Source: Schmidtea polychroa
Taxonomy: Eukaryota
Assembly: GCA_044892525.1 (NCBI GenBank)
Contig: CM097888.1
Span: forward strand, 4,154,001-4,218,000
Direction: 5' to 3'
Length of the DNA stretch: 64,000 nucleotides
Shown here: positions 29,850 through 62,595 of the stretch, piece by piece
Layout: the number at the start of each line of letters is the position of its first letter
Numbering within the stretch: the stretch's first letter is position 1
Translations under genes and position numbers: made by a program
The notes under the pieces: model-generated
Databases searched by the model: none
The model's input: only the letters and a program-made list of their open reading frames with translations
Told to the model about the DNA's origin: nothing

Positions 29850-29850
29850 T

Positions 29851-30114
29851 ATAATGGTAAAGGTCAACTTGGAATGACCACGTTATTATCAATCATAATG
29901 ATAAAGGTCAACATGGTATTACCCTGCAATCATCAATCATAATGATAAAGGTCAACATGGTATTATCCTGCAATCATCAATCATAATGATAAAGGTCAGC
30001 ATAGGATTACCCTGCAATCATCAATCATAATGGTAAAGGTCAACATAGAATTACCCTGCCATCATCAATCATAATGATAAAGGTCAACATGGTATTACCC
30101 TGCGATCATCAATC
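29851..30114. repeat. 44-bp minisatellite, 6 copies (same family as 18638-19209)
   Basis: 6 x 44 bp, starting 1 nt after the hAT TIR. Confidence 0.95.
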
Positions 30115-30617
30115 ATAATGGTAAAGAATCATTACCTTATTAACCTTCAGGACCAACTAGGAAATAGTTCAAACATTAACAATCACTCAATTAATTAATT
30201 TATTGATATTGTCAATGCATTGATTAAATACTATTTACAAAATTTTTAATTAATTAATTAATTTTATTTGTTTAATTCTTGACACACACACACACACTTT
30301 GCTTAATCTTTGGTACCTTTCTCTCATTCAAACTCGCCATATTTTGTTTGTTTTAACTAATGTTTATTTGATAATTAATTAATAAATTAATAAATTAATG
30401 ATTAATAAGAAGAACCTAAATTAATCATTTTGATAAATAATCTACTTTATTTGAAATATATAAACAAGTTTCATAATATAAAAATAATAATTGTCACCTA
30501 CACGTGGTTGACTGATTGTAAGTATACTAATGAGATCACCAATGATTATATATAATCTAGTATATAAATTACTTATAAATATTATTATCTATTTCACGTA
30601 GAATATTTATCAAAATT

Positions 30618-30998
30618 ATGAANNNNNNNNNNNNNNNNNNNNNNNNNNNNNNNNNNNNNNNNNNNNNNNNNNNNNNNNNNNNNNNNNNNNNNNNNNNNNN
30701 NNNNNNNNNNNNNNNNNNNNNNNNNNNNNNNNNNNNNNNNNNNNNNNNNNNNNNNNNNNNNNNNNNNNNNNNNNNNNNNNNNNNNNNNNNNATTTTCTTG
30801 ATATTTTTTGTCGCAAGTTTCGAGCTGTTTCCCAAATCAGATGCCATGATTCTATCTGACGGAAAGTCGAACTGCGAATACGAGTGCAACCGGACGAAAG
30901 CAAATTGTCGACGAGATTGTTCGCTTTATGGTCCATGCAGTTATTGTTTTAATAGTTGTTCAAGCGCATTTCTCGAATGTGTAAGGAAATGTCAATGA
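30618..30998 (+). CDS. Small secreted Cys-rich peptide, copy 2 (N-terminus interrupted by an assembly gap)
   Basis: ATG AA[gap]IFLIFFVASFELFPKSDA followed by MILSDGKSNCEYECNRTKANCRRDCSLYGPCSYCFNSCSSAFLECVRKCQ*. Confidence 0.75.
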   Translation: MXXXXXXXXXXXXXXXXXXXXXXXXXXXXXXXXXXXXXXXXXXXXXXXXXXXXXXXXXIFLIFFVASFELFPKSDAMILSDGKSNCEYECNRTKANCRRDCSLYGPCSYCFNSCSSAFLECVRKCQ

Positions 30999-31443
30999 TA
31001 GAATGAAAATAAAAGTTTATATTTAATTCGTGTTTCCTCAGTTATTCTAGGAAGTGTCAATTTCATTTTGTGAAATAGCGGCAAAACTCATGATCGAAAC
31101 CCTCTATTTGACCACCAGTCACACCTTCTGTGTTTTCGCTAATTAGATTCGAGAAAACATGACATCGGGCAAACCAATGAAATTTGAGAGAGGAGGGGGG
31201 GTCAATTGGCTGAGGGCCAATACACACTGAAAATGTAATCTAGCAATATCATTAATAAACGCAAAATATAAAATAGATTCCTGAGGAACTCATAAATCCA
31301 TTTTCACTATTTTGTTCCTTGCAATAGTTATGTTCGTACGTGGGATATACGGATAACACACTCACTCGATGTGACTCCAAGGATATATGTTCAATAAAAC
31401 AAAATCACAACACGACTTATATAAAACTATTTATTTATATGTA

Positions 31444-32467
31444 CAGTAAACCCTCCAACTGCGCGGTTTTTCACTGCGCGGTTTCGCAATTGCGCGACCA
31501 AACCTTTAATACCAAAATTTCGATCTGCGCGCTAAAAATTTCGTAGCTGTGCGGTTTTTTTTGTTTTTGTCTATTTTAACAAGAAAAATCATGTCAATTT
31601 AATTTTTTATGGTGAATCCCGTAAAACTACGAATACATATGGTAGTGAAAATAGTGATTCATCGTATTTCGATGCACTGTATTTTTTATATAAAAATAAT
31701 AAAGGCAGTTTCATTTTTCTAGTGATGTGGTTAGGATTAGGATGTAAAATTACATAGTTTTAATTAATAGATATTTATACAAGTGTTTATTTAATTAAAA
31801 ATATATTAGTATTAAATTCAAAAAAATCTTATTCGTGTGCATTAGATATAACCGTTTACTACCGAAAAAATATCAAGTTTTTTAAAACTTGGTAGTCAAC
31901 TTGAACAGCAAGCTCTTAATATAGACCCTGATATGGAGCGTGCCTTAAAATTTCGGAGAAATCTGACAGCAGCTTTAGCACCATATGCTGAAATTTATAA
32001 AGAAAAACAAAAAGCTGGTAAGCAATCAGTGTTAACAAGCTTTTTTCAAAAAATTATACAATCACAGCCAATAGAATCAAGCTCATCAGCATGTAGCAGT
32101 GATTAATATAACGTTACTTATGTTAATTTTTATTTATGTTTAGTCGTTGAATTGAGACTGTTTTTTAGTTCTTGTATTGTTTTTTATAATTTTTATTTAT
32201 GTTAAATTTTTATTAATTTTTATAATAGTAATATTAATTATGTAAAAGCAATGAATTGAGACTGTTTTTATTAGTTTTTATGTTTATATAAATGTAAATA
32301 TGTATATTAGTCGTTGAATAAAGACTTTTTATTATATTTTTTAATATTTTTGTAATATCTGGAACCTAACCCCATAATTACATATATAATCGGGTTCACA
32401 GTGCGCGGTTTCGGTTTGCGCGTTGTTTTTGTGGAACGTATCTACCGCGCAGTTGGAGGGTTTACTG
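31444..32467 (+). mobile_element. Non-autonomous pogo/Tigger element, 1024 bp
   Basis: 24-bp perfect TIR CAGTAAACCCTCCAACTGCGCGGT and TA TSD. Residual transposase C-terminus DPDMERALKFRRNL..ALAPYAEIYKEKQKAGKQ..LTSFF. The empty site is present in copy 1 at ~20471. Confidence 0.96.
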
Positions 32468-33479
32468 TATAATATATATATATATACAAAATGTGGATTT
32501 AATTACAAAGTTTAAAATAACAATAAACGCGTTGCCCCAAAAAGTTGTTTCAAATAGGCAGCTGATAGATATCGGCTATACAAACTGTCCTAAGATATTT
32601 GCTGAGATATTTCTAAGACAGTGAATGCAGTATCCTAATTGGTCAACAGCACAATTCAACAAAGCCAGGAAATAGACGAGGGTTACCCGAAATTTACCGC
32701 GATCGATTACTACCCAGAAATTGGTACTAACGTTATCCTAAATTGCCTACCATCTGTTATTTTACCAAAAACAACCAAACCATCTTCTCTAGAAACCCGA
32801 TGATGTTTCCAAAGTAATATAAGCCTTGCTAGAACTGTTACAGCTGATCTATCAAATTATATAATGACCAATTTCTGTTTTTCGCAAATGGCTGTCATAA
32901 GGTACTTTAATTTGATCTTCCTTCTCTGTACTGATAAACTGTGCCATTTCATATCAAAATTTATAAATTAAAATAAATCAAAAATTATTATTTTTTAAAT
33001 AATTTCTTTTATTAATTACTAATTATATTATTAATTTTATTAATTACTAATTAGTTTTACCTTATCAAGCTTGTTCCTTACAAATCAGTCAAAATCTCAA
33101 AAATAGGAAAAAACCTTTTTATCATATATGTTAACATGTCAAGGACAGGTAAAAATTACTAGAAACTGTTCAAAATATAGAAGAGTAACAAAATGGATGT
33201 GATTAATATGCAAACCTAGGCTAAGCGAGGGGGGGGGCATAATCTGTGATTCTATGTAATAATTAAAAAAAAATTTGCACTGATAAATGGAATGACTAGT
33301 GAAAATTCCATAAGCAATATTGGCATTATATAAATTATTATTTATTAGTTTGTTTAAATAGTTGACATTTCATTTTAAAAAAATAATGATTAAAATAATA
33401 TTTTTAAAGAATTTTAAAAATATAAAATAATTATTTGTTGAAAATTATTTTTGAAAATACTTATTTAAAATTGTTATTT

Positions 33480-40910: not shown

Positions 40911-42697
40911 TTATAAGTTTCCGTTTAGCAAAATACCAGTAAACAGCATAATACCGAAAGTTATCAGGAACAAAAAGTGTTCCTCGAGGTGGGTTTGAAT
41001 AACAAAATGTTCATGATTTTTTGACAGCCCTTTACCCGAACCAATTAGGTTAAGGGTCAAGATAGAGCACAGAGTTTAAAGCAAAAGCTGTTTATCGGGG
41101 TTAGAGGTCTTCATAACAAAATTTTAATTTCAGGGAGGTAGGATTGGTCCATGAATTACTCCAGATGTGGTTCAGCCAAAAACATAGCCGTTCTTTCTAA
41201 ATTGAAATCTAACTAATAATAATAATAATAATAATTGTTCGAATTTATTATTTTTTAACAAGAATTCTTACTATTTTGATTGGTTGATTATTTTTTAAAA
41301 TATCAAAATTTAAAATAATTATACCAAATATTTAGAAAATTCTTTTAAACTATAAAATATAATTTTTCATAATTTTTCCTTTAAAATTTTTTATTTTATT
41401 CAAACATTTTTGTCAATTTGTCAAATTGAAACTTGTAAATCTTTTGTATTGTTTTTATTATTATTAAATGTCTCTTGTTACTATTTGCTGTCATCTCGCA
41501 GCGGAGTGTGAACGGAAATTTTCTTATCAATTCAAACAAAAAGTATGGAAGAAATTTAATTGAAAAAGAAATTAAAATAAATTCGACTGTCGAGAATAAA
41601 CAAAAGTGTTTTGATGATTCTCGATGGATGCATTTCAGAATTGTCTCGGGTTGAAATGTGTGAGGAAAAGGCAACATTTCAACTCCTTTTGTTTACGTAT
41701 GACAATGAGGTGCAGCCCAATAAATTGAGTTGAATTATATATTTTAAATATATTATTTCTTATTGGTGACAAACAATTCTAAACCTTATAAAGGATTCTG
41801 TGGGACTTTGATTATTTCCATGTGAATGAGCTCACAAATTGTTGGGGTTTACAGTTACATCAGCTTCGTACTACATATGAGCGCTTTGATCTCCATTAAA
41901 ATAATCATGATTCTATGATACTTACTCATATAAATGTAGAAGGGTAACGATTATGAGGATATATATAATTATGGGCATGAAAGGAAATGGGATATCACAG
42001 GAATTGGTTCATTGATAAGGTTTTCTGATAATGAGGTTTGAATTATCACAAGATATGCAAACTTTCAATATTTTACTCGTCTACATATTTTCTAGAATTT
42101 AATTTATTTTATGCTCCTGATAACTCAATATATATATTGTCAACTAACTATTACAAACAAAATCTTTATTAACACTGATGCAGTTACACATTTACACTTT
42201 TTATTAGTTTACTCACACTTGATACAATCAGGTTTTGTCTGCACTTTTCAATTTGCCAACAAATCTCACGCAGGGGTAGATCTTCAAACGGGAGATGTCC
42301 CTTTCTGGTACGTTCGATTTTTAAATTGTTTATTTTCTACTAACTTTAATGTTTCCTTTTTCGCTCTCGTCAAACTTCTATTTTCTTTTCTTCGACCAAC
42401 TGTCAATTTTGATTTCTTGCCAGTTGCTTTTATATTCACTTGGTAATTAACTTTATTTTGGTAAATTAGTTTGGGTCTAACTTCCCCCGGGCTTCCTCTT
42501 GTAGGTCTAATTCAATTTAAGGAATTGCCCCTTCTTCTTTGACGCTCGCGTCACTTTTATTTTATTCGGCTAATTTTATTGCCTTACCAAAATTGGATTG
42601 CTAATTCAGGTTTTCTCAAATCACTCGGGTTTTCTATTGTCTCGGGTTCTCCATTAGTCAATTAATTTTTGTTTTTTGTATTTCATTCCTTTTTGGG

Positions 42698-44288
42698 GGT
42701 TACATGACAAAATTACACAAGACGAAATTACACAAGACGAAATTACACAAGACGAAATTACACGGGATGAAATTACACTGAGACGAAATTACACAGGATG
42801 AAATTACACTGAGACGAAATTACACGGGATGAAATTACACAAGACGAAATTACACTAAAAAATAGTAAGAAACAAAATTAAAAAAAATAGTTTAAATTTT
42901 AATAAAAAGTTTTAATATAAAAATTAGTAAAAAGTTTTAAAAAATTAGTAAAAGTTAAGTATTAAATTTAGCAATGAATATATTAACAATTTTAAATAAT
43001 AAAATAATAAAAATTTAAGTAAAAAAATAATTATAATATTTAATAATTAATAAATATATATATTCAAATTACTAGTTTTTCTCTTTAATAATAACATAAT
43101 TTTTTATTTTATGAATAGTGAGAGATAAAGTAAAAAAATAAAATCAAACATTTAATGTTAAGTAAAAAAATAAAATCAAACATTTAATGTTAAGTAATAT
43201 GAGCTATTCACCACAAAAACTCTAATCGTCTATTAGGGTTATAATTAAGTACGATTCTCGAAATTCGTTGTTTAAAATTAGTGTAACGAATACGTCCTGG
43301 ATTTATTTGACCAGTTAAATGCTGTAAATAATTTGTATGCTGCAATGATAACTCTTTGATCATATTATTAAGAAATTTCCAAATTGTTGGATGGGAACAT
43401 TGGAAAAGAGATTGTATCCCATAATGCCATCCTTCTATACAATTTGTAGTTCTTGCTACGCAGTTTGCTGCTGATTCCCTATGGTTCCAAGATACTATAG
43501 TAAATAATGGATACTATAGTAAATAGCCTTGTCAATGAGCTTTTCTTTGGTAGTCCAATTTTTAATCCATCCGCTGCAGTCATTATATTGTCTGCTATGA
43601 CTGATCGAGCAGTTGCACCTGGGTGAGACATTTTATCTTTCATCGCATTAGTCAGTTTGTGTGATTTTGCTTCAAACACTTTATTTTCATGAGAATGCTC
43701 CGAGGGCTCACGAATAATCTTGTCGTCTTTAGTGTGGAGCAAAGATCGACATTTTAAAGTTCTAAATTTTGAACATCGCCAGTGTCTAGTCCCTTTTATA
43801 GTTTGACGATGTTGAATAAACTCAAATCCTTTATAAATAATGATTTTTCCACCTTTGTTGCTGATACTATACTCAAAGTTATCCATGGTGCGCAATGAAG
43901 AAAATTTGATGAATAAAATATCAATATAAGCAATAGACTAATAGAATTTAGTTTTATAGATTTTGTATATATAATTGTAAAAATAATATTAAAAGAGAGA
44001 AATAAGCTTTTATAATGATATTAATTTATTTAATAAGTTTCTAAAAATTTAATACTTAACTTTTACTAATTTTTTTAAAACTTTTTATAAAAAATTTTCT
44101 ACTAATTTTTTTTCTACTTTTTTCGTCTTGTGTAATTTCGTCTTGTGTAATTTCATCCCGTGTCATTTCGTCTCAGTGTAATTTCATCCTGTGTAATTTC
44201 GTCTCAGTGTAATTTCATCCCGTGTAATTTCGTCTCAGTGTAATTTCATCCCGTGTAATTTCGTCTTGTGTAATTTCGTCCTGACACC
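42698..44288 (-). mobile_element. Mutator-like element (MULE), deletion derivative, 1591 bp
   Basis: 9-bp TSD CTTTTTGGG (42689-42697, 44289-44297). Long TIRs built of 15/16-bp tandem units (GACGAAATTACACAA). Contains an FLYWCH ORF and the MULE C-terminus RTTNCIEGWHYGIQSLFQCSHPTIWKFL (~43330-43460). Confidence 0.92.
43479..43895 (-). pseudogene. FLYWCH zinc-finger N-terminus of a MULE transposase (DDE core deleted)
   Basis: SNKGGKIIIYKGFEF..RHWRCSKFRTLKCRSLLHT..EHSH, then LPKKSSLTR. The catalytic domain is absent. Confidence 0.85.
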
Positions 44289-45811
44289 CTTTTTGGGACC
44301 CCCCCCGCCCCCATTGATTTTATTTTATTATAGTTGAACTCGTCTCATTATTCAGCATCCGCTCATACCAGTTTCTCACGGAAATTATTCACTTTCAAAT
44401 TTATTTTTGCTTTTTAATTAAAATTTTATACTTTAAATTTTATTTTGAATTTGGTGTTTTAATCGATTTTCACCTCATTTTTGTGCCTCTCCTGTTGAAT
44501 CCCAACAATTATCAAATTGCTGTGTAACCAGTAGAAACAGTAGAATATTTGTGGTTATATCCAGTCATTCTGGAGGTGAATAAACCTATTATGTCAACAC
44601 TCCAATTCATAATTTAGGAGGAGAAGTTTGGATTGGTATTTGTGTTTCCCTCTTAAACATGCTTTTGATGTTTTCCTAGAAGGGATTTATATTTCAGAAA
44701 ATTCGATGTTTTTAGACCAGCCCTCAAAGATCCAGTGAAAAGGCAGTTGGTCTGTTTGTCTGAAGAATAAAAGGTTGCGTAGCAGCGTAACCAGTAATCC
44801 TTGCCAAAATATTTATATAAATAAATAAATAAATAAATAAATATATATATATATATAATTTGAAGTTTGGATTTCTATTTTTTTATTTTTTGTTTGTAAT
44901 GTGCAATTGTTACCTTTCTCATCCTTACAGACGATGAAGTTATAAAAATTGACACAAAATGCATAAACTATGTAAAATCAATTTTCTCGGAAGTAAAAAG
45001 TTTGTGCAAATGTCAAATGAAAAGTTTCATCAACAAATCCAATTCTAATAAAGCATCACTTTTCGAAATTCTTTTGGGGTAATCAAAATATTTAATTTTA
45101 TTTCTTTACCAAAGACTTCAATTATTACAAATTGTTCTCGACTTACTGTTTCAAACTAAAGGCACTTCTCACTGGACAGGGTAACATGTGAATGGATGAT
45201 TGATTATAAAATAAATGATCTCGAAGTTAAACACAAAATGCTTAGACCAATGGAACAAAATTATCAGAGGATCCAATCAAATGTCTGTTATTAAATAATT
45301 AAATAGAGAAACTGCTATAAATCCTAGTGTAAATAATCAGATATTAAAATAAAAAACTCTGAAATTGTAAGAAATTATAAAGAGCGAAACGAAAGTAAAA
45401 ACTGAAGACTCACTCACCAGAATGCGTGGGAAACACNNNNNNNNNNNNNNNNNNNNNNNNNNNNNNNNNNNNNNNNNNNNNNNNNNNNNNNNNNNNNNNN
45501 NNNNNNNNNNNNNNNNNNNNNNNNNNNNNNNNNNNNNNNNNNNNNNNNNNNNNNNNNNNNNNNNNTGAACCGGGAGAACAATGATAATATATGAATAAAT
45601 AAACAAATTGATATAGCAAATCATCACATACAACAACAACAGCAACAAACGAGCCCATCATTCATATTTATTCAAATACATAAGCAATGAAATTGATCAC
45701 GCCCCTCCAATGGGAGAATTGATGCGATATACAATTACAATCAAGGAATTTACCACCACACATCAAATGTAAGGCGGAAACCGGCAAAAGAAAACAAGAG
45801 ATAAATTGCAA

Positions 45812-47840: not shown

Positions 47841-48400
47841 AGGGTTTTCCGACCTATTTAGACACTTTAACGATCAAATTAGACATTTCAAAAAAGTGAT
47901 ATATATTTCACAAACAATTTAGACAATTTTCCAATCAATTTAGACAATAAAATTAAGAATAAGTTTGGCAAATCCACAACATTTTTATTCATATATCAAT
48001 TCCATATTTCTACTTCTTTCGATATAAGTTAACATTCTCCTGAAATACCCTCCACAATCTTCGCTTGTTAGGATGTCAAATCCTGCCATAATCAAATCAT
48101 TTAATTCATTTTCGTTGTTTGCATTACCTCTGAGCACATGATTCTTCCATTTACTGAAACAATTCTCAATAATGTTAAGAAATGGAGAGTAGGGTGGTAG
48201 ATATACAACTTTGATGTTTTCAGCTTCACATATGGAAATAAAACGAGCACAATGATGTATACGAGCGTTGTCGATGATAAAAATTGGATCTGTAATTCCT
48301 TTATTTATCGATAAATTGTTTAACTCTACCATATAACTCAAAAATTTACAAATACATAATATTTTTGAGAGTAATGTCCGTTCCTTTTATCAATTATATT
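47841..48400 (-). mobile_element. IS630-Tc1-mariner (DDE_3) transposase C-terminal fragment
   Basis: IFIIDNARIHH..YLPPYSPFLNIIENCFSKWK in ORF 47985-48341. Confidence 0.88.
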
Positions 48401-50130: not shown

Positions 50131-50699
50131 AATAATAATTTATTATATGCTTGCTACTTACAATTTAAATTAATATAATTTAGTCAAAAGTTTTCAAAGC
50201 AGAATTCAAACATGTGGTGGGTTACAGGTAATCCAAAGTTTCTACCTACTCGTGCTGTTTCCAGTGTAACTCAGAATACAATTGACAGCTGAGCAATCAA
50301 CGTTGGTACTGTACCAAGGGTTTGAGTACTAGCAAAAAGTGAGCATGCTTAACATACTGTAATTGTCTAGCACTCACTTAGCTTCACGGACTGCCGATAG
50401 AAGGCTTATGTCCGATTTTTCTCGGTCCCCTGAGTGTGAATTGGTATTCTCGAATAATCAGAATATATACAGACACATGAGTCATCAAGATAACGAACAC
50501 TTTTATTTAAATCTCATAACCCATGGTGGGAGTTCATAATACCCCAGTGGACTCTCCCGAGGTAGATATTGGTAGGGTCAAGTGGGTTGGTCTTTGGCCT
50601 AAGCTGGCTTGTCGTAATCTGGCGTGGGCAGCCTTACTCAGCCGGATTTTCTTCTGAGGGAGAATAAGAGATGCGAGTACTTTAGGATTGTTGAGTACT

Positions 50700-52130
50700 T
50701 CCGACAAAATTAAACCCTTAACAAAATCTGAGTTTGTATGTAAGGATAGTCTCGAATTTGCATCATAAAAAGGATAATAAAATAAAAATAATGATAATGA
50801 GTATATGGTTTCGCTTGATGTATCTAGTTTATTTACTAATGTCCCGTTGAAAGAAACAAATGATTTATGTTGTGAATTATGGAATGAAAATATTAATGGG
50901 CATAATATGTGTGATGGAAATGCATTTAGGAAGCTTTTAGAGTTATTTAACTTCTAAAGTTAATTTTCTTTTTAATAATGAATGGTATGAATAAATTGAT
51001 GGAGTGGATATGGGTTCGCCCTTAGCACAAACAATGGCGTCAATATTTTTGGCATGTTTAGAAAAGAAAATTGCTACTTTTCAATATGAGAAACCAATTG
51101 TGTATAAAAGGTATGTTGATGATATTTTTCTGATATTTAAAAATAAGGAATACGTGAAACTTTTTTTGTATTACATGAATGGATTGCACAAGAACATTAA
51201 ATTCACATGTGCAACTGAGAAGGATTCATCCATAGCATTTCTAATTAAACGTAAAGATGAACAATATGAGACAGAAATTTACAGAAAACCAACAGATTCT
51301 GGCCTCTATACTACCCCAGAGAGTTTTTGAGAATTTAAATATAAAAGAAACATGGTGAAAGGATTGGTTTATCGATCATGGAGCTTATCTTCAACTTTTA
51401 AAAATTCAGTAAAAAGTGTAGATAAATAAGTTGAATTACTGGTAAAGAATGGCTACTCAAAACGGCTTTTATTGTTAACATTGAATTATAGAATTGTTTC
51501 AAAATCGTGCAAAGTACGTAGTATGTTTGTTAGTAAATCTCAAACGCTGGTTGGATTGTGTTCGGATCTCGTTTATCAATTCACATGTAATGGGTGTAAT
51601 GCCACATACATTGGAGAGACTTCCCGTTATCTCTGTACTCGAGTTCAAGAACACTGTTGACCGAAGGGAGTGTCCAATATTAAGAATCACAATAAAGTCT
51701 GTTTGAGAGAATTAGAAATGTCTGATTTTAGAATCTTATCCAAAAATTTTGATAATTGTTTTGAGCGTGTGATATTTGAAGCATTATTGAGAGGAACTTT
51801 TAATCCTAAAATTAATGTGCAGAATGCAGTGAATACGTGTGTTGAATGTTTTTAATTAAGTTTTTGTATATCGATGTATATTGAATAATAGTTATGTTAA
51901 ATAATTTTAAAGTTTTAAATATAATTGATTATTGGAAATTATTGTTAATGAAATAAATTGTTTAAAATTTATAGATTTTATAATTTGTTTATATATTATC
52001 AATATAGTATAATTATTCATCCGTCGTGAATGTAGTTAACCTGATGATGATGATAGTGATGCTATCGAAATATAGAGTGAGAAAGGTGTATGAATGGCGA
52101 TTATTATTAATAAAATCTTCACCTTGTTTA
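50700..52130 (+). mobile_element. Penelope-like element (RT plus GIY-YIG endonuclease), 5'-truncated and decayed
   Basis: MVSLDVSSLFTNVPL, MGSPLA, KRYVDDIF, IKFT, IYRKPTDSG, and GIY-YIG LVYQFTCNGCNATYIGETSR..RVQEH..FEALL..NPKIN. Several stops and deletions. Confidence 0.93.
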
Positions 52131-52348
52131 TTTGAGTATAAATTATAATATAGTCAAAATAATTCAGCAGGTAAGTTAAGATTATACAAATAATCATCCA
52201 TTCAAAATAACTAGGTTGAGTCAAACACAACTAAAAAAACAGAAATAAAGCATAATCACGAGGTGCTAATATTTGGCCCAGCGTTTTGATTGTCTATGCA
52301 GGGCGATTTTGTCAAGGACGTCCCGTTTTCATGGCATGTCTGTTTCTG

Positions 52349-52759
52349 TTAAGCGCTGGCCCCTGGTGGGCTTCTTTGGCGTTCCACGCTGCGGTGAATG
52401 GCGGCTGTTCGTTCTGGGTAGCACTGCAACCGGTGATACCCACTTATGTCCTCCAGCTCGCCGGCCAGAGTTTTGTTTTCGAGCCTTTGTAATCGATTTA
52501 AGGCCGTCTTGATGTCCTCGCACGCTTCTGTCAGGGCTAGGCAGGTGGTGATGAGGAAAGGTTCTACCTTCGGGGTCACAAGAACCACATTCTGGTAGGT
52601 CCAGTCGTGGATTCGATACTATATCCACCGGGACCTCAGTCGGGTGACTTCATCTCGGCCCAATCTGGTGGATTCTTCTGCCTCCTCTTGTGTTGTTCTG
52701 AGCCCCGATGCAGATGCCAAGGGGCCCGCTTGTCCGTCTCCTTGTCTGGTGTTAGGCAT
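52349..52759 (-). other. GC-rich ORF relic, probably the 5' ORF of an unrelated TE
   Basis: Markedly GC-richer than its flanks. MPNTRQ..RWI*YRIHDW..ERQRSPPGASA* has one in-frame stop. Family not recognised. Confidence 0.35.
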
Positions 52760-53100
52760 GGCTGTGATGATAAGAGAAATATTAAATCGAATCTTTGTTT
52801 ATCCATCTGGGTTCGCTTACCCCAGGACGTTTAAACGCACAGTTACATTTTAAATTCAAGCATGATACGCATTCATCCAACATGCAATGATTTTTTGTAT
52901 TTAAGGTGGATTTAAATTACTAATTAATTTCCGTATTTGATTTTTCGATTTAACTTAAGAGATTAGTTTGGGGATTACTAAATTAAGGATTAATAAATTT
53001 AGGTTTAACGAATTAAGAATGGAAAAATTAAAATTTCGTAAATTGAATTTGAGATCGCATATTCAAATGACTCTTGTTTAACTAATTCAAAAGTTTAACT

Positions 53101-53417
53101 TGTTACTTTAAAGTATAAACATTATGTTGAGGATACCTAAATAAAATTACCTGGGGGAAGATCGCAGTTTAGAAACCAATCAGTGATTGTGATCTTTTAA
53201 TCCGGTGTTATACACAAGTGCTATTCCTCACCGAGTGTTGTAATAAGCATTGTATAGTCACCAAGTAGAGTGTTGAATTTATCGTCCGTGTCAAGTGAAA
53301 GTTTGTTTGTGATTATCAATAAAGATTTCTGTTGTCAAGTGTTATTTGTGAATTATATAAAGACACACTTGGAGTCAGAGTAACATTAAATTTTATCACC
53401 AACTCAATAACACAACA
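53101..53417 (+). repeat. Candidate 5' LTR (left boundary uncertain)
   Basis: Ends ..CACAACA five nt before the PBS. AATAAA at ~53318. The TG start at 53101 is a guess because the 3' LTR is not in the window. Confidence 0.45.
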
Positions 53418-53422
53418 TATTT

Positions 53423-53440
53423 TGGTGAGCCCAGCGTGAT
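53423..53440 (+). promoter_or_regulatory. Primer binding site, tRNA-Trp type
   Basis: TGGTGAGCCCAGCGTGAT. Its reverse complement ATCACGCTGGGCTCACCA fits the tRNA-Trp 3' end pattern (ATCACGTCGGGGTCACCA) with 3 differences. Confidence 0.7.
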
Positions 53441-53625
53441 CAAAAGTTGGTGAAGAGATTGTGAAAATAAAGTGTGGTAAATTGAAATTATTAAAGTGAT
53501 TTTGGAAAGGTAAATTGTTTATTGTAATAATAATTTGAGATTTAGATTTTGTGTAATTTGAAAAGAAATAATTTATTAAAGTGAAACGATATTATTTACG
53601 AAGCCAGAGTAAAAAGGAAGCCATA

Positions 53626-55574
53626 ATGAGCAGTGAAGATTTACCAGTTTCAGTTATTAAAGAAAATAATGATTTTGCCAGTTGTCAAAGATTGCCACTA
53701 GAGCAATATGGAGGAGATCCAATTATATTTGTTGATTTTATGAGCGATTACTATATGTATGCAACGGCTTATGGATGGTCTCACGCAATCATGAGGTTTG
53801 GCAACAAATCGACAGGAAAACAATCGGCAATGATTGGGCCAAATTAAAAGATGCATTGGCTGCTAAACTTATTGGAGGAGATATAAAGAGATTAATGCGT
53901 CAGAAATTTTATAATAGAGTTCAAAATCCAAATGAAACAGTGAGCGAATTTGCTTATCATTTATCGACTCTTGTCAGCAAATTCTTTGAAGAAGATTCGA
54001 AACAACCAGGATTAGCCCAACAGATGCAGGAACTGATTCAAGATCAATTTTTGTCCGGAGTAAATAAAGAAATAAAAACGGCATTATGTTTTGTAGAGTA
54101 TGACAATTTCGATGAACTAGTTAAAAAAGCAATGAAAATCGAATTGAACCTAAAGAGCTCTAAAAATAAATCTGAGGTATTTGCAATAATTCCAGTACAA
54201 AGAGAGAGATCAGTAACCCCAACCCAAGGCAATTTGGAATCAGGAAATAGATTTCAACGATCAAAGAGTCCATCACCTAAATGGAGAAACGATAATAATA
54301 TGAACAGAGCAAGCCAAAATTCACCCGGCACTGAGAGAGCTAAAGTTATTCCACTTGATATTTGTAAGAAAATTAGCCATTATACAAATCAGTGTTGGTT
54401 TAAAAATAATTCTGAAAGAGTACCCAGGAGATTGAGTCCAGATTGGCAAAGAGATAATAGAGGAACGAATTTTCGGAGAGCAATTCCTAATGTGAAGTCA
54501 AATTTTAATGAAGTACAATGTTATCGCTGTGGTGAAAAAGGACATGTTTCTAGAAATTGTTTTTCAAGATCAAGATCACCATCAATGTCACCATCACCAC
54601 AAAGAGATAATGTGAATTTAAATGGACAAATTCAATGTCATTTATGCAGAAATTATGGGCATATTGCAAGATCTTGTCCCAGGAATTCCGATAAATTTCA
54701 AAGACCAATTTTGAAACGAACGATTAGATTTCAGGAAGAAAGCCACTCAAAGAATAATGTTGCTTATGTTCAGAAAGATAAATTTAGAGAAAAAATTGAG
54801 AACGATGTCAAACAATTGAATCAAAAATTGAATAAATTGATGGCGAAATTTGAATCAGATGAAGAAACAGATTCTCATATGATGACAAGACGAAAATTGA
54901 AGACAGATGAATCCAAACTTGATGATGTTACAAGAAACCGAGTTAAAACGGATATGCAAAGTGAAAAGAGTACAATACTTATTGCTAAGGTCAGAAAATT
55001 AGTAACAGAACCTGATGCGAATTCTCAGAAATTGACGGAAGTATTGATGAAGCTAACGGAAATACCGTTGAGTTTAACCAAAATTAAAACTGTTATTAAA
55101 CTGTGTACCGAATGTTATGCAGCAAGTGTGGAAAAGCGAGATGTATTTGAAAAGTATATGAAAGAATTTGGCCAAACTCCACGAAAAATCAAATGGTTAG
55201 ACCCGATATTTATTAAAACAAATACATTAGATGACACCAAATCCGAGTATCAAGTTGAAGCATACGGAAAAATACGCGAGTTGAAAAGAGAAATAATGCA
55301 CAAATGTGAAGTTTGGGCAGTAGAACTTAGATTTATGAATCGAGTGTTGGAAGACGACGAATTTTTGATAGATTGTGGATTGATCTCCGGCGTTGAAAAT
55401 GAGATACAAATAGTGAGCATGATTGCCAATGTAAAACCAGTCAAATATGATGTCAATAAAATTAAATTTGAATTAAATGAAGCATTGATCAATGGAGATA
55501 CAGGTGATATTATTGATAAATTAAATAATATTTTGAATTTAGAATATGAAGTGCAAGATAAATTAAAAATTTAG
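53626..55574 (+). pseudogene. Gag (capsid-like, RS/SP-rich, CCHC knuckles) extended by a helical region and ubiquitin-like domain 1
   Basis: EQYGGDP..F..Y..YATAYGWS, frameshift ~53790, W..LKDAL..F..RVQNPNETVSEFA..L..DQFLSGV. Knuckles CYRCGEKGHVSRNC and CHLCRNYGHIARSC. C-terminal IFIKT..LRFMNRVLEDDEFLIDCG. Confidence 0.85.
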
Positions 55575-55618
55575 ATTGTGTCAGACCCTATGTAAATTAT
55601 GATAATAAATATAGTGAA

Positions 55619-55960
55619 ATGATAAAAAAGCTTATTCGTAAATTTGGACAAGAATTTAGAGAAAAAGGAGTTTATATTGAGCCATTCGTAATAATGTTAA
55701 AAATAAATGATCCAGAAGTGGAATGTACCAACGAGCATTGGTGTACGAAAGTGAGTAAAATACGACGGAGAGCAGCAGAAATTATGGGCAGTGATGGAAT
55801 AATTGTATTGACATACAAAGGTTTTGAGTTAGATGATGATGAGTACTTATTTGATTGTGGCTGTGTACCACGAAAATTTGATGAAAATGGATCTTTGGCG
55901 AATCAGGAAACGTTTATTAATGATTTATTAATGAAATTTAGTTGCGATGAAACAATTTGA
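55619..55960 (+). CDS. Ubiquitin-like domain 2 ORF of the retroelement
   Basis: KVSKIRRRAAEIMG..LTYKGFELDDDEYLFDCG resembles ubiquitin LIFAGKQLEDGRTLSDYN and UBL1. The frame is open back to 55562. Confidence 0.6.
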   Translation: MIKKLIRKFGQEFREKGVYIEPFVIMLKINDPEVECTNEHWCTKVSKIRRRAAEIMGSDGIIVLTYKGFELDDDEYLFDCGCVPRKFDENGSLANQETFINDLLMKFSCDETI

Positions 55961-56804
55961 ATCAAAGGAAGTAGAAAGCTTTAAAATGGAATTACCAAAC
56001 TGGGAAAATGAGATAATGAGTAATGATGATGAGATGCACGATGAACAAGAAATGAAAAGAGATGTAATATTAAATGAAACTGGAGAGATTATTGTTAAAA
56101 ATGAGATGAAGACTGAAGAAGATGAAATAGAAAATGAAGCGGAGCAGATTATTGTTGAGAATGAAATGAGAACTGAAGTTAAAAATGAGGCATATATGAC
56201 CAAGATGACGATTGATAATGATATTAAAGAAAAACAATGCAGAAATTTGTATGAAATAAGATGTCAAATAATACAGATATTTCAAGAGGAGAAAGATCAG
56301 AAAGACTCAAAGGAAACTGAGAAAATTGTACTTGCTCTAGTAAACGAATTATATGGTGAATCAACAGAGAGAATACAAGTTGAGAAATATGTGAGAAAAA
56401 TCGCAGAGAAAGTTAAAAAGAGATTTTGTGTAGTGTTAAAACAAGCAAAAGAAAGTATGGAATTTTGCGATGATAATGTGATAACTGAGATGATGACAAG
56501 GAAAATAGATAGAGATATGGTATTAACAATTATGAGTTATATTTTGTTAGAAATCGGAACCTATGATTGCTCAGATATGGAAAATCAAGAGGAAATAATT
56601 AAAACGGCGAGTAAAGTTTTACATAAACATGTTGGCGAATGGATAAAAGAGAATGGCGGTTGGGAAAAGCTGATTAAACAAAAAATAAAACCAGTTGTGG
56701 AATTGAGAGAAAATTATGAAGAGGTCTTGCAACGAAACACCATGAAATTTCCATTTTTAATGTTTATGATTATGATATTATTACAACTCAAACGACGTCT
56801 TTAA
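55947..56804 (+). CDS. Acidic N-terminus plus Bcl-2-like domain with C-terminal hydrophobic segment
   Basis: BH2 WIKENGGWEKL (56640-56672), BH3-like VRKIAEKVKKRF, divergent BH1 position EMMTRKIDRDMVLTIMSY, then FPFLMFMIMILL. Confidence 0.7.
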   Translation: MKQFESKEVESFKMELPNWENEIMSNDDEMHDEQEMKRDVILNETGEIIVKNEMKTEEDEIENEAEQIIVENEMRTEVKNEAYMTKMTIDNDIKEKQCRNLYEIRCQIIQIFQEEKDQKDSKETEKIVLALVNELYGESTERIQVEKYVRKIAEKVKKRFCVVLKQAKESMEFCDDNVITEMMTRKIDRDMVLTIMSYILLEIGTYDCSDMENQEEIIKTASKVLHKHVGEWIKENGGWEKLIKQKIKPVVELRENYEEVLQRNTMKFPFLMFMIMILLQLKRRL

Positions 56805-58839
56805 TCGCTTACGACTGTTCTCAAACAAAAATGGGAAAGGTATATTCGATGGTAGATATGACAGAATGTCCAGATGCACATCCACTGAGTTTAACAGTGG
56901 AAAAGGATGTAAAATATTATGTATATCAAGAGTCTGGATTTAGACATGCCACGGTGAGAGAGTGTATTGTGAAGAGAACAAGTTTTGTATTCTATTGTGG
57001 CAAATGGAGTCACACATCATTAATAAAAATGTATGCAATACCAAGGCCAGTTGATGTAAATCCAGAAAATTGCATGGCTGCATTCCAGAACGGAGAACTG
57101 AAAATAAGTCCCGAAATTAAATTGAAGGCGAATTGAATCATGCAATACGAGAAACGATTATTGAAAAAGTGGTGATAAAGGCCAATGGTGATTGTGAAGG
57201 CGAACCATACAAAATGAATGGGCAAATTATTGACAAAGTTGTTGTGATGGAGGAATATTTAACAGAATTGAGAGAATTTAAAGGAGCTTTTGACGATGAT
57301 ACAGGCAAATTACAAACTCATCCATTCTGTAATATGAAACAGACCAGTTGTCAAACAGGAAAATCGATTTTGGTATATGAAGTAAAGACAAATTTGTGTA
57401 ACTTGATACATTTGAAATCAATGAGTTTCAATGAAATGAGTGGCGAACAATTGAGAGATAGACCGGAAAGTTTGAATGTGGAAGCAAAGCCGGATATGAC
57501 AGTTAAAATTACGCGATTGAGAAAGAGAAAAACTCCAGTAGTTCTGATGTCAACTTTATTGGACGATGGGATGAGATTCATACGAAAACGAGTAGTGGAT
57601 AAGTGCGGCCAAACGGTGTATGAGACAAATTATAAAGGGATTTATGTGTCCAAGAAAAGAGTCGAGGAAGCTCAAATGAAAATACATAGTACAGATATTA
57701 AATTGACAAATTATTTCAATAACAAAATAGATTATCTATTCCATTACAGCCAAAGCATTGTGGAAAATATTTATCGAGAAATGATATTAAACGATTGTAA
57801 ATTAAACAAAGAAATATTACGAAATAGAATGGCGATGGCGGTCACAAATCCGAATTTAGTAGCACCTATGTTAATATCGGAAAACGGTGTATTTGCAAGG
57901 ATATTTGGTGAAGCGTTGTATAGCTATAAATGCAATAAGATTTCCGTACAAATTATAAAACACGAACAATGCACAAATGAATTACCAGTGAGTGTCAATG
58001 GTAAACTCAGATTTATGGAACCAATAACTCGGATATTGTTAGAGGAAGACGTAAAACCAAAGGTTTTAAAATGCAACAGATTACTCGCACCATTATATCG
58101 ATTAACACCAGATTCATGGATATCGTTACCAGATCACAAAGGAGTAAAAACTCCAGAAAAGCTCGAATTAACAAAGCTTGAGTATTTAATAAATTTCACA
58201 TCATTGGATAAATTAGCACAAACCGGATTGTATTCTCAAGAAGATGTTGAGGAAGCTAGAATGAATTTGTTATTTCCATCGAAAAAGGAACGAGTAATAA
58301 CTGAAATGATTGATACTATACTACCAGGAGGTGAAGGAAAAGTAAACTATGATTATCTATTAACACCAGATTATTATAAAAAGGCAACGTATAATACGAT
58401 GAAAAAGATATGGGGAAAATTTATGTTTTTAGGACAAGCGTGTGCGGGATTGATTGGAATTTATGTTATGATAGTGATGACAAAGGTAATAATATCTCAA
58501 ATATTAACTACACACCAATTATATGTTATATCTGGTTGGTCATGGAAATTGATTATTGGATGCATACCGTTCTTGGCCAGATTTCTGATTACCAAGCATC
58601 AATACAAAGAAATGGGGAAAGTAAAATCACGATTAACTAACAATAAAAGAAATATTGATTCAAGTTCGAGTAATGAAAGTGGAGATGGGGATAATGATAA
58701 TGATAAACCAAGAGTACCCCCTATGTATTATTATAAAAATAATAAAACAAAAATAAATGATATAAAGGAAAAATCTAAATCTATGAGTTTATTACATACA
58801 GTACCACAGGCAAGTGGAACAGACACTTTCAGTCGATAA
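56742..58839 (+). pseudogene. Chuvirus-like / herpes gB-like (class III) envelope glycoprotein with two 1-nt frameshifts
   Basis: Signal MKFPFLMFMIMIL, then (frameshift) TSLIAYDC, CGKWSH, GDCEG, YFNNKIDY, DCKLNKEIL, GEALYSYKC, CTNELPV, FMEPITRIL, GLYS.EDVE, C-terminal TM and GWS. Frameshifts at ~56782 and ~57132. Confidence 0.8.
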
Positions 58840-58881
58840 TGTATTCCAAAAACTTTTATTCCAACAGCAGCAATATATCCA

Positions 58882-59901
58882 ATGGAAAAACTAAAGGAAA
58901 TGAGGCCAATTGAGAATATTGAATTAACAAATGAGCAAATTATACCGACAAGTGCAGAAATTGAAAGGAGAAATATGCTGGGATTACCAGGAAATTATGC
59001 GCTAATGACAGTCGGAAACAGAGGCAGACAACCAAGAATATGGGTACAAGTAAATAAACATAGAGTTGAAGCATTTTTAGATTCAGGTTCGAGTAATACG
59101 ATATTATCAGACGAAGTGTTGAATTCAGCTGAGAAAGCACAAATGAAAAGTACAGAAGAAGTGGTACGATCAATGACGAAAAACAAACTAAATATTATTG
59201 GGCAGATTAGAGTCAAGTTCAATATTGGAAATCAGGAAATTGCTCATGATATTCTAATAATGCAAAATTGTCCAGTGGAATGCTTAGTGGGTATGGATGT
59301 TTTAGCACAGCTAGAAGGAGTTTGTCTTGATTTGAAAACGGGAAATTTGATTATGGGAGAAACGGGGAAAGCCATTCATGAAACAGGAGACGTGTTTCTA
59401 AACCAAACATTAAGAGTTCCACCTCAAAGTAAAGTTATTTGTTATGTGAATACAATGGGAGTTCCAGATGATGAATTTATATTTCAACCAAGTGAAACAT
59501 TAATCGAAAAGTATGATATCCCCATGTGCGACGAACTAGTAAAAGTCCAAGAGCAATTAATTCCCGTTTATATTACCAACAATAATGATAAAGAAATAGC
59601 ATTAGGACCAAAAACGAAATTGGGAAAGTTGACAAAAATCTTAAAAATGGACAATAAAAGATTACCGAAAAATATAAAAATATACAAAGAACCTCAAGTA
59701 AACAGTAAAGATTTGACCCAAGAACAAATACAAACATTTATGAAATTATTGAGAAAATATCAAGACGTCTTTGCAAATCATGAATATGATCTAGGAGTTA
59801 CTCATGTAATTGAGCACGAAATTCCATTAATGGATGAAACTCCAATTAAACTACGACCATACAGAATTCCTTATGCACATCAAGAGGAAAGTGATAGATA
59901 A
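58882..59901 (+). CDS. Retropepsin protease, linker and RT N-terminus (pol part 1)
   Basis: VEAFLDSGSSNTIL, CLVGMDVL, LLRKYQDVF..DLG..IEHEI..PIKLRPYRIP. Same frame as the G ORF and as 59911. Confidence 0.92.
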   Translation: MEKLKEMRPIENIELTNEQIIPTSAEIERRNMLGLPGNYALMTVGNRGRQPRIWVQVNKHRVEAFLDSGSSNTILSDEVLNSAEKAQMKSTEEVVRSMTKNKLNIIGQIRVKFNIGNQEIAHDILIMQNCPVECLVGMDVLAQLEGVCLDLKTGNLIMGETGKAIHETGDVFLNQTLRVPPQSKVICYVNTMGVPDDEFIFQPSETLIEKYDIPMCDELVKVQEQLIPVYITNNNDKEIALGPKTKLGKLTKILKMDNKRLPKNIKIYKEPQVNSKDLTQEQIQTFMKLLRKYQDVFANHEYDLGVTHVIEHEIPLMDETPIKLRPYRIPYAHQEESDR

Positions 59902-59910
59902 ATAAAGGAT

Positions 59911-61150
59911 ATGAAGGATTTCAATATCATCAGAGACAGTTTTTCACCATTTTCTTCATCCATTGTTGTTGTTAAGAAAAAAGACGGTGAAATAAGATTT
60001 TGTATCGATTATCGAAAACTGAACCAAGTTACAAGAAAGGATACATATCCAATCCCAGTTACTCAGGAAATGTTCGACAAAATGGGAGAAGCTCAATATT
60101 TTACTGTTATTGATTTAAATAAAGGGTATAATCAATTCAAATATCATGATGGAGCATTGGGTGGACATTTATCAGCAAGAAAAACAATGTCACGATTAAA
60201 ACTAAAGTATTTTTGGAATACAATGGACCAAGATGTAAAGCATTGGTGTAATACGTGCAAAATTTGTCTAACTCGAAAGAATACAGGAAAGAAAATAAAA
60301 GTCCCACTAAAACCAATGCCAATACCAGCAGCGCCAATGGAATTTTCAGCAATGGATATTATCGGGCCCTTACCCGAAACTACAAATGGAAATAAATATA
60401 TTATTGTATTTTGTGATTATTTAACAAAATGGCCAGAGGCGTACGCAATACCAAATCAAAAAGCGGAAACAGTTGCTCAAATATTTGTCGAAAAGATTAT
60501 ATTCAGATATGGTGCTCCAAAGAAATTGTTAACAGATCAAGGAACAAATTTTGAAAGTGATTTATTTAAATCTATTACCGAATTATTTGGTATTTATAAA
60601 TTAAATACATCACCATATCACCCGCAAACTGACGGGCTAGTAGAAAGATTTAATGGTACTTTAATCAATATGATTGGGACTTATTTATCAAACCATGTCT
60701 GTTTGCCTATCGAAATGCAGTTAACGAGAGTACGGGTGAAACACCTTTTTATTTAATGTATTTGAGACGAAACAATATGCCAATTGACCTGAAATTTCAA
60801 CCCCCAACGTCTCAATATATGGACGTTCCAAATTATAAAGTAATAATGCAAGAACGATTACAATCTGCATGGACTCGTGCGGGGTTAAAAATTAAGTATC
60901 GTCAGGAACAATATAAAGAAAACTATGACAAAAAGGCGCATGAGCACGGAATAAAAGTCGGAGATTCAGTATATTTAAATAGGCCAGAGCCAGTAAAGGG
61001 CCTATCAACAAAATTACAAAGACCATTCAAGGGTCCATACACAGTGTGTGATGTTACAGCAACTAATTTGAAGTTACGTCCAATGAATAACAAAAGAGCA
61101 GAAACAATTATAGTTCATGCCAATCGATGTAAGAAAGTATCCGAAATAGA
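59911..61150 (+). pseudogene. Truncated RT fused in-frame to integrase (most of RT and all of RNase H deleted)
   Basis: SPFSSSIVVVKKKDGEIRFCIDYRKLN..IDLNKGYNQ joined directly to HDGALGGH..C..C (HHCC). Core MDIIGPL / TDQGTNF / GLVERFNGTL. Frameshift ~60700, then GPY/F motif RPFKGPY. Confidence 0.93.
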
Positions 61151-61238
61151 GTATCAATTACGATCAAAACAAAAGAAACTTAATGATGAAAAAATTATTC
61201 AACAAAAATTTCATAAAAACCCTACGCCATTGGGATAT

Positions 61239-62408
61239 ATGAACAGAGTTTTATTTATAACTACAGTCTTAATAAATATCATAGCAAATGCAAGTGGAAT
61301 AACAATGAATCTACCATATGCAGTAGAAAGAGTACCCTTATTGGATAAAATTTATATATATTCAACATTTACTAGTATTGAGTGTGAAATATCAGAACAA
61401 ATAGAAGTTAGTAATTTATTGAACCCTTTCGAACCATCTGTTACGTTGAATTATGAGAAAAGCATATATGTAGCTCGTCGATTGACAGCAAATTACAAAT
61501 ATCCTTGGACCATTAAACGATATACGCATTAAACAAATACTACTCAAAATATTTATAACCTTATACAAATTAACATTTGGACAAATGAATGGAGAAATTT
61601 AGTTGAAATTGAACCAATGATAAATGAAATTCACGTATATTGGAAAGCGGAAGAGCAACAGAAACTCAGAATTGTTTTTCAAAACATTACGATTGAAACA
61701 TTAAATAAAAGAAAATCTTTTGTTAAATACAAAAATTTACAAGAAAATCTCACTTACAGTCTTTCAATACATTATTACGAGAAACTCATTCATGACAATG
61801 GGACGTATATGAATAATCAATGGATAGAAGTGCAGAGTCAATATGAAGCAGTACACTTGGTTAACGAAACTAATCGAGTTCAAATAAAAATTGAGAACAA
61901 TGAAATAATTGTGTTACCCCAACCAGGCCTCAGACAAAGGGTAAATATTTTTGTAAATAATAAAATTCAGGTGGTGTTAGACGAATACCAACAAAGAGCA
62001 AAGTTGAGTACCTTGAACTCAGTATCTAATCCGAAACCAAGAAATTTCATGATCAAAATTCAATATTGCAAGCGAAAAGCGAACTCAGATCAATGGCAAG
62101 TCACTTTCATTGAAAATAGACATATTCATCTTCCTCATACTCAAACCATTGGAGAAATAATAAGTGATCATAATCTAACATTAACCGTAAAACCCTCATG
62201 GTCAAAAAACGAAAGCTTTTCACTAAACTGTAAAGAAAAATCATCTCATAACAATTGTGTCGAATTGCTATTCATATGTATCATTGTGGCAATACCAAGC
62301 GGTATCTTACTCATCTACATTGTTCTAATCTTGAGAAGTAATGACAATGACAATTCTATCTGCGACTATCAATATTCTGAGCCGCAGCAGTTAGAGACAT
62401 GGGTGTAG
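61239..62408 (+). pseudogene. Type I membrane glycoprotein with FN3-like segment (one in-frame stop at 61530-61532)
   Basis: Signal-like MNRVLFITTVLINIIANASG, multiple N-x-S/T sites, HVYW..KNLQENLTYSLSIH (FN3-like), TM LLFICIIVAIPSGILLIYIVLIL, and tail ending ETWV*. Confidence 0.6.
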
Positions 62409-62595
62409 TAAGATATGATTTCATTGCATGCTATTGATATCGTAGAGTATTTCTTTCTTTCATACCTTTTATAATTACATAAAAATGACTAATAGTGATC
62501 TTGTATTGTGATTATTCGTGATCTAAAATTAAATTAACCAAGGAATTAACCAATCAAATTACTGTAATTTGATTGGTTAAACGATTGCACTACTG

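Follow-up and report, generated by a model that had tools for sequence, protein, structure and literature searches.

A span of 699 codons (56742–58839) in the window, by which we mean the whole 64,000-nucleotide stretch of Schmidtea polychroa DNA analysed here (contig CM097888.1, positions 4,154,001 to 4,218,000), encodes a predicted envelope glycoprotein region, hereafter G. G sits inside one 15.2-kb Ty3/gypsy element with a pair of long terminal repeats (LTRs), a 4-bp target duplication and a tRNA-Trp primer site (Table 1), and a purine tract precedes the 3′ LTR. The related copies that we examined were all bordered by 4-bp target duplications (6/6), and the two LTRs of a copy were 99.5–99.9% identical in five of six pairs. 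As for the tRNA itself, tRNA-Trp(CCA) genes form a tandem array with a 284-bp period from 55.02 Mb of C4 onward (L122), and the tRNA 3′ pattern has 821 matches genome-wide.

Table 1 Features of the G-bearing element, in window coordinates.
Feature	Position	Strand	Evidence and remarks
5′ LTR (TG...CA), internally deleted	53125..53417	+	293 bp vs ~950 bp for the 3′ LTR; preceded by ATTA; 97.4% identity over 268 shared bp
Primer-binding site, complement of host tRNA-Trp(CCA) 3′ end	53423..53440	+	Two mismatches in this copy
gag (Retrotrans_gag, two CCHC knuckles), then ubiquitin-like domain	53572..55571	+	zf-CCHC E 5e-9, Retrotrans_gag E 5e-5, ubiquitin E 0.01; broken near 53794 and 55564
Polyprotein continuation in another frame; putative second ubiquitin-like unit, judged by eye	55562..55957	+	No Pfam match
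Acidic linker and Bcl-2-like domain	55935..56741	+	PF00452 E 2.5e-4, below cut-off; Bcl-2-related protein A1 E 0.0016
Predicted class III fusion glycoprotein region (signal-like segment, ectodomain, anchor ~58420-58510, tail/linker)	56742..58839	+	PF24664, fold model; frameshifts ~56780/~57130; premature stop 58837-58839
Aspartic protease and PR-RT linker	58840..59898	+	E 3e-9; stop at 59899-59901
RT stub	59902..60140	+	Pfam; sister comparison
Integrase (H2C2, core, C-terminal part)	60141..61220	+	Integrase_H2C2 E 4e-16, rve E 4e-11; frameshift near 60670
Second membrane protein (signal-like segment, predicted tandem FN3 ectodomain, anchor, short tail), in frame after integrase	61221..62408	+	Stop 61530-61532 in this copy
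Separate downstream ORF with ISG20/REX-like exonuclease domain, ~510 aa in sister copies	62581..64000, past window end	+	RNase_T E 3e-6, ISG20L2 E 2.6e-7, ISG20 E 3.3e-6; stops in this copy
3′ LTR	contig 4221385-4222334 (window-equivalent 67385-68334, ~3.4-4.3 kb beyond window end)	+	Followed by ATTA

The remainder of the window holds several other repeats and remnants. Just upstream of the 5′ LTR lies a GC-richer patch (52250–52850; 41% in the 52–53 kb bin) with several short open frames, and further upstream, at 50500–52130, we found a reverse transcriptase fragment (RVT_1, E 3.5e-4), probably a Penelope-like remnant, followed by what we take to be a GIY-YIG-like motif; pieces related to this remnant recur at 10.4–11.2 kb and 33.5 kb. 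A DDE_3 transposase fragment occupies 47985–48383 on the minus strand (E 6e-16), and long inverted repeats of 15–16-bp units, about 1.2–1.4 kb apart, at 42690–44290 resemble a non-autonomous DNA transposon. Tandem arrays of 44 bp at 18550–21030 and 29760–33050 belong to a segment duplicated at a spacing of 11–12 kb, with 93–99% identity.

The pol of the element is, by similarity search rather than by a tree, assigned to the Ty3/gypsy type: the closest PDB match was the Ty3 Gag-Pol (E 3e-113), with Ty3-type reverse transcriptase (RT) at E 9e-86 and the best retroviral RT at E 2e-26. The window copy is dead, interrupted by several frameshifts and stops and by a deletion in RT and RNase H. Sister copies carry about 1.24 kb more at 60140/60141, which holds the greater part of RT and the whole of RNase H; in the window copy the frame continues from the RT stub into the integrase. 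Contigs from sequencing runs whose RNA origin is a guess cover bins of the element (X1, 30/30; X2, 20; X7, 10), and constitute no evidence either way on expression.

In related copies, gag, a ubiquitin-like (Ubl) part, a Bcl-2-like part, G, protease (PR), RT, RNase H (RH) and integrase (IN) form one frame of up to ~3,440 aa. The order of Pfam matches in single frames was zf-CCHC, ubiquitin-like, Bcl-2-like, G, PR, RT, RNase H and integrase, the weak domains not being matched in every copy. Within the window, the frame at 56720–57133 matched the Pfam family Monjiviricetes_fusion (PF24664; E 2.4e-14, score 52.7) and the frame at 57121–58836 matched it more strongly (E 2.1e-70, score 237.9), both above the family cut-off of 27 bits; a search with the same family gave matches in 0 of 14 control genomes. 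Relative to one sister copy, frameshifting gaps separate the parts of the window G near 56780 and 57130. The stop at 58837–58839 belongs to the window copy and is absent from the compared sister, whose frame continues into the protease, and the methionine at 56742 is likewise absent from that sister; the ends of 56742–58839 are therefore not gene ends, and the hydrophobic stretch at 56742 is an internal signal-like segment. G proper comprises approximately 626 aa, namely the signal, a 540-aa ectodomain with 14 cysteines, a membrane anchor and a short tail. The ectodomain of the sister copy carries one N-glycosylation sequon only, and a weakly hydrophobic second stretch 3′ of the anchor could complicate the topology.

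To describe the fold, we took the 540-aa ectodomain from a sister copy, left it unaltered and modelled it as a monomer on an 18-row alignment. The model reached a pLDDT of 70 and a pTM of 0.52, with a central helix of 48 residues. Among viral models, the best matches listed were chu-like virus G proteins (E 6e-35, TMq 0.63, 17–21% identity), and among solved structures every PDB match listed was a herpesvirus gB (best E 5e-13). Superposition on gB aligned 402 residues (Z 9.2, rmsd 8.4), the fit to solved gB being loose overall (TMq at most 0.38, rmsd 8–15 Å). A PDB sequence search with the ectodomain yielded no fusogen, only three unrelated matches (E 0.055–0.79). On the Pfam match and the predicted fold taken together, G is assigned as a homologue of the class III glycoproteins represented by chuvirus G and herpesvirus gB. 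These results agree with much of the preliminary description, which had been made from the letters of the window alone. Its class III homology is borne out by PF24664 above cut-off and by a model that matches both chuvirus G and gB; its chuvirus-G-like glycoprotein of ~690 aa upstream of a protease corresponds to the PF24664 matches across 699 codons, with the protease next at 58840–59898; its placement of G between gag and pol stands, with zinc knuckles upstream and protease, RT stub and integrase downstream; and its gypsy host element was recovered in the best match of pol to Ty3 Gag-Pol and the PR-RT-RH-IN order of related copies.

A protein search of the genome with G yielded 2,875 candidates, 76 of which were scored. 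Eleven of these 76, the window included, belonged to the family of the window at 93–100% identity, and the rest were 67–69% identical. The open frame holding the scored G match measured at least 2,000 aa in 46 of the 76 cases and at least 3,400 aa in 16. Between three families of the genome, G retained 72–76% identity with a dN of 0.16–0.18 and a pS of 0.74–0.79, at which synonymous sites are saturated, and comparison with a diverged copy (L008) gave a dN/dS of 0.028/0.349. Across families, then, G evolves under purifying selection. Identity between families decreased from RT (86–91%) through G to PR (53–61%) and the Bcl-2-like part (29–38%). Database relatives of G were mostly long polyproteins with G before the protease, at 39–42% identity.

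A simple hydropathy scan of the polyprotein provided the basis for its topology. In all three families examined, hydrophobic segments followed the pattern signal, anchor, signal, anchor, located before G, after G, after the integrase and at the end, respectively, and from this pattern we infer a membrane-threaded polyprotein. The region is most probably the envelope domain, now broken, of a 15.2-kb Ty3/gypsy element in decay. In related copies a single frame codes for capsid, a predicted class III glycoprotein and enzymes, and the resulting polyprotein would be threaded through a membrane. In working members of the family, this single chain would span the membrane of the endoplasmic reticulum (ER). 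The Gag-Ubl-Bcl2 part would remain cytosolic, and the first hydrophobic segment would serve as an internal signal, at which signal peptidase would free the N-terminus of G. The G ectodomain would then enter the lumen and trimerise, while its anchor would bring the chain back to the cytosol for PR-RT-RH-IN, and the ectodomain of the protein behind the integrase would be exported by means of another internal signal. Gag and the enzymes would stay attached to the membrane carrying G until the element protease set them free; such tethering would link the assembly of the capsid and the packaging of the enzymes to budding with an envelope. Finally, G would fuse the particle with its target cell. The window copy, being dead, is incapable of this mechanism alone, and the cell-to-cell infectivity proposed in the preliminary description is something we infer for the family and does not apply to this copy.

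A less probable reading, which we nevertheless take seriously, is that G has been kept for a role other than infection, such as an intracellular budding scaffold or receptor interference, and that the family spreads mainly by intracellular retrotransposition. The high copy number and the near-identity of LTRs in five of six pairs (99.5–99.9%) require no extracellular step. Moreover, because the synthesis of pol needs an open G frame, G is shielded from stops. An open frame alone, however, would not preserve 72–76% amino acid identity at saturated synonymous sites, nor would it hold G above PR and the Bcl-2-like part in conservation; furthermore, the entire class III fold appears to be kept in the model. 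Purifying selection and the gB-like model together support the idea that these flatworm elements have an envelope or had one until recently, and the value of the present locus is in this respect confirmatory.

Regarding the origin of G, the preliminary description had proposed an independent capture of a class III fusogen by a gypsy lineage in a novel position, and had regarded the capture of chuvirus-like G as a feature mainly of BEL/Pao elements. We consider it highly improbable that a gypsy lineage acquired a chuvirus G in a recent capture of its own, at a site new to science. The nearest viral structures are those of chu-like virus G, and elements of GAG-ENV-POL order are not monophyletic in a published POL tree (Chary and Hayashi, eLife 2026, PMC13524379), so that several captures or rearrangements are possible. 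Against such a capture, G is 17–21% identical to the viral G proteins among the best matches listed, compared with 39–42% to gag-G-protease polyproteins and 72–76% between sister families. The G and RT trees contained copies from the S. polychroa genome and two further relatives; in the G tree, the element sequences formed one group with support of 100/97 apart from two stand-alone G proteins, although these two outgroup proteins are the only ones and have long branches, which makes the tree a weak test, and the three genome families were not separated. An independent capture is not supported, since other gag-G-protease polyproteins have a G with which that of the window shares ~40% identity and groups. 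Nor does the position prove novel, as an env between gag and pol has been described in planarian and other elements (PMC6431247, PMC13524379), and gypsy elements of GAG-ENV-POL order with such an env (PMC13524379) contradict the restriction mainly to BEL/Pao. The layout is real but already published.

That G is a separate insertion into a gypsy copy, whether of a fragment left by an endogenous chuvirus or of some small element, is scarcely credible: G in the window alone looks self-contained, as an ORF with a methionine and a stop, but from gag to RT, G and both of its borders included, the window is colinear with sister copies at ~97%, G is in frame in related copies, one LTR pair and one ATTA target duplication enclose the whole element with none of G's own, as we checked, and at the DNA level 10 of 43 matches, one of them the window itself, are at least 98% identical along nearly all of the 1.5-kb query. 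Two further assignments were rejected. Peptidase_A17 and DUF1758/1759 are markers of BEL-type protease and gag; none was matched in three polyproteins at E ≤ 0.05, and pol is of the gypsy type, which led us to reject a BEL/Pao reading. An endogenous chuvirus fragment was rejected as well, G having been found neither apart from the retroelement frame nor with viral N or L genes.

Two parts of the element lie beyond the published gag-G-pol layout. Each of the three families examined has the membrane protein behind the integrase, at 36–45% identity, and in a sister copy this protein carries seven sequons. Pfam gave no match on this protein. Atlas features of the fn3 type (0.90–0.92) were assigned to it with low recognition, and its structural model was of low confidence (pLDDT 58, the middle domain being poorly modelled). 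Foldseek matched the model to fibronectin and to receptor FN3 arrays (E 8e-7), and VIA gave Z values of 7–8 for the first and third domains. Both methods, the Atlas features and the model, point to tandem FN3 domains. Relatives of the protein numbered four among 1.84 billion representatives. More distant G-bearing polyproteins (P0007, P0008 and P0021) likewise terminate in hydrophobic segments after the integrase and have extra protease domains, but no similarity could be detected between their C-terminal membrane proteins and the FN3 protein. The exonuclease-like ORF could be recognised by eye after the polyprotein in a second family as well (L035:334-1821), and the downstream stretches scanned in the third family contained no ORF of at least 100 aa. 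Our literature search, outside of which lay most subscription journals and Repbase, found no description of either the FN3 protein behind the integrase or the ISG20-like ORF; the conserved FN3 membrane protein after the integrase may be new.

In herpesviruses, attachment and fusion are carried out by separate proteins. A comparable but tentative proposal, which we consider rather unlikely, is that these elements are two-glycoprotein retroviruses built from one polyprotein. In them a class III fusogen between Gag and protease would be paired with a captured FN3-repeat type I membrane protein behind the integrase, which would act in attachment or as the trigger of fusion. A covalent tether to the envelope would bring Gag and Pol into the particle, and the ISG20-like nuclease would be an accessory protein. 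In the literature that we found, no reverse-transcribing virus has been described with an entry design of this kind. If the FN3 protein is a particle protein, the family would offer a retroelement with separate attachment and fusion proteins, and the movement of transposons from cell to cell in planarians would become testable.

Among the closest known systems are the giant gypsy elements of planarians named Burro or GYPSM1 (Arkhipova and Yushenova 2019, PMC6431247, citing Grohme 2018 and Jurka 2007). Their env lies in frame between BCL2 and PR, has matches to mononegavirus glycoproteins and was called the first such case. As in Burro, the element described here has one polyprotein in which Gag, ubiquitin-like and BCL2-like parts and an env precede PR, followed by RT-RH-IN, the Ubl and Bcl-2 matches here being below Pfam cut-offs. 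The differences are in size and cargo: Burro exceeds 30 kb and encodes 4,873 aa, compared with 15.2 kb and ~3,400 aa here; and its BIR, ankyrin and MATH cargo had no Pfam match at E ≤ 0.05 in our related copies. Between PR and RT, where Burro carries a dUTPase-like domain, our element has a linker of matching size, in which Pfam gave no match. The Burro section of that paper does not mention an FN3 membrane protein or an exonuclease ORF.

Also among the closest systems are the errantiviruses of Nematoda, Bryozoa and Platyhelminthes, which were reported to have only HSV/gB-type env proteins, in GAG-ENV-POL order and linked to Chuviridae glycoproteins, and whose extent of infectivity by means of such proteins was called unclear by the authors (PMC13524379). 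Six Schmidtea members are listed there, and two of them, Smed_errantivirus_1 and _2 of Schmidtea mediterranea (45 and 215 copies in the supplement), share with our element a gypsy pol, the gag-env-pol order, a gB/Chuviridae-like env, a length of ~15 kb and multiple copies. Over the first 60 env residues, compared by eye, the G of the window family matches Smed_errantivirus_1 at 48 positions and Smed_errantivirus_2 at 41. A related family of our genome, L079, differs by eye from Smed_errantivirus_2 at 3 of 88 residues, and is 72% identical to the window family in G and 86% in RT. The window family itself is absent from the six listed Schmidtea rows, as far as a comparison by eye can tell, and the tRNA type of Smed_errantivirus_1 and _2 is given as 'none', in contrast to the tRNA-Trp primer-binding site here. 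The words 'polyprotein', 'in-frame', 'fibronectin', 'accessory' and 'Burro' do not appear in the main text of that survey.

Other systems share single features with the element. BEL/Pao elements with Chuviridae-like G (Dezordi et al. 2020, as cited in PMC13524379) carry the same glycoprotein family in an LTR element, whereas pol here is gypsy-type. Rotifer LTR elements (Rodriguez et al. 2017, PMC5408684) have a DEDDy exonuclease as ORF3 and so also place a separate 3′ exonuclease ORF after pol; unlike the RNase D-like DEDDy enzyme of rotifers, however, the ORF here has its best matches in ISG20 and ISG20L2, and an envelope is present in addition. With chuvirus G and herpesvirus gB, the G of the element has in common PF24664 above cut-off and the predicted fold, but it is 9–21% identical to them, is made internally within a retroelement polyprotein, and is here a predicted fusogen. 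Judged by the similarity of its G to that of Smed_errantivirus_1 and _2, compared by eye, the element is a further family of the catalogued GAG-ENV-POL clade and a sister of those two, a compact relative of Burro rather than Burro itself.
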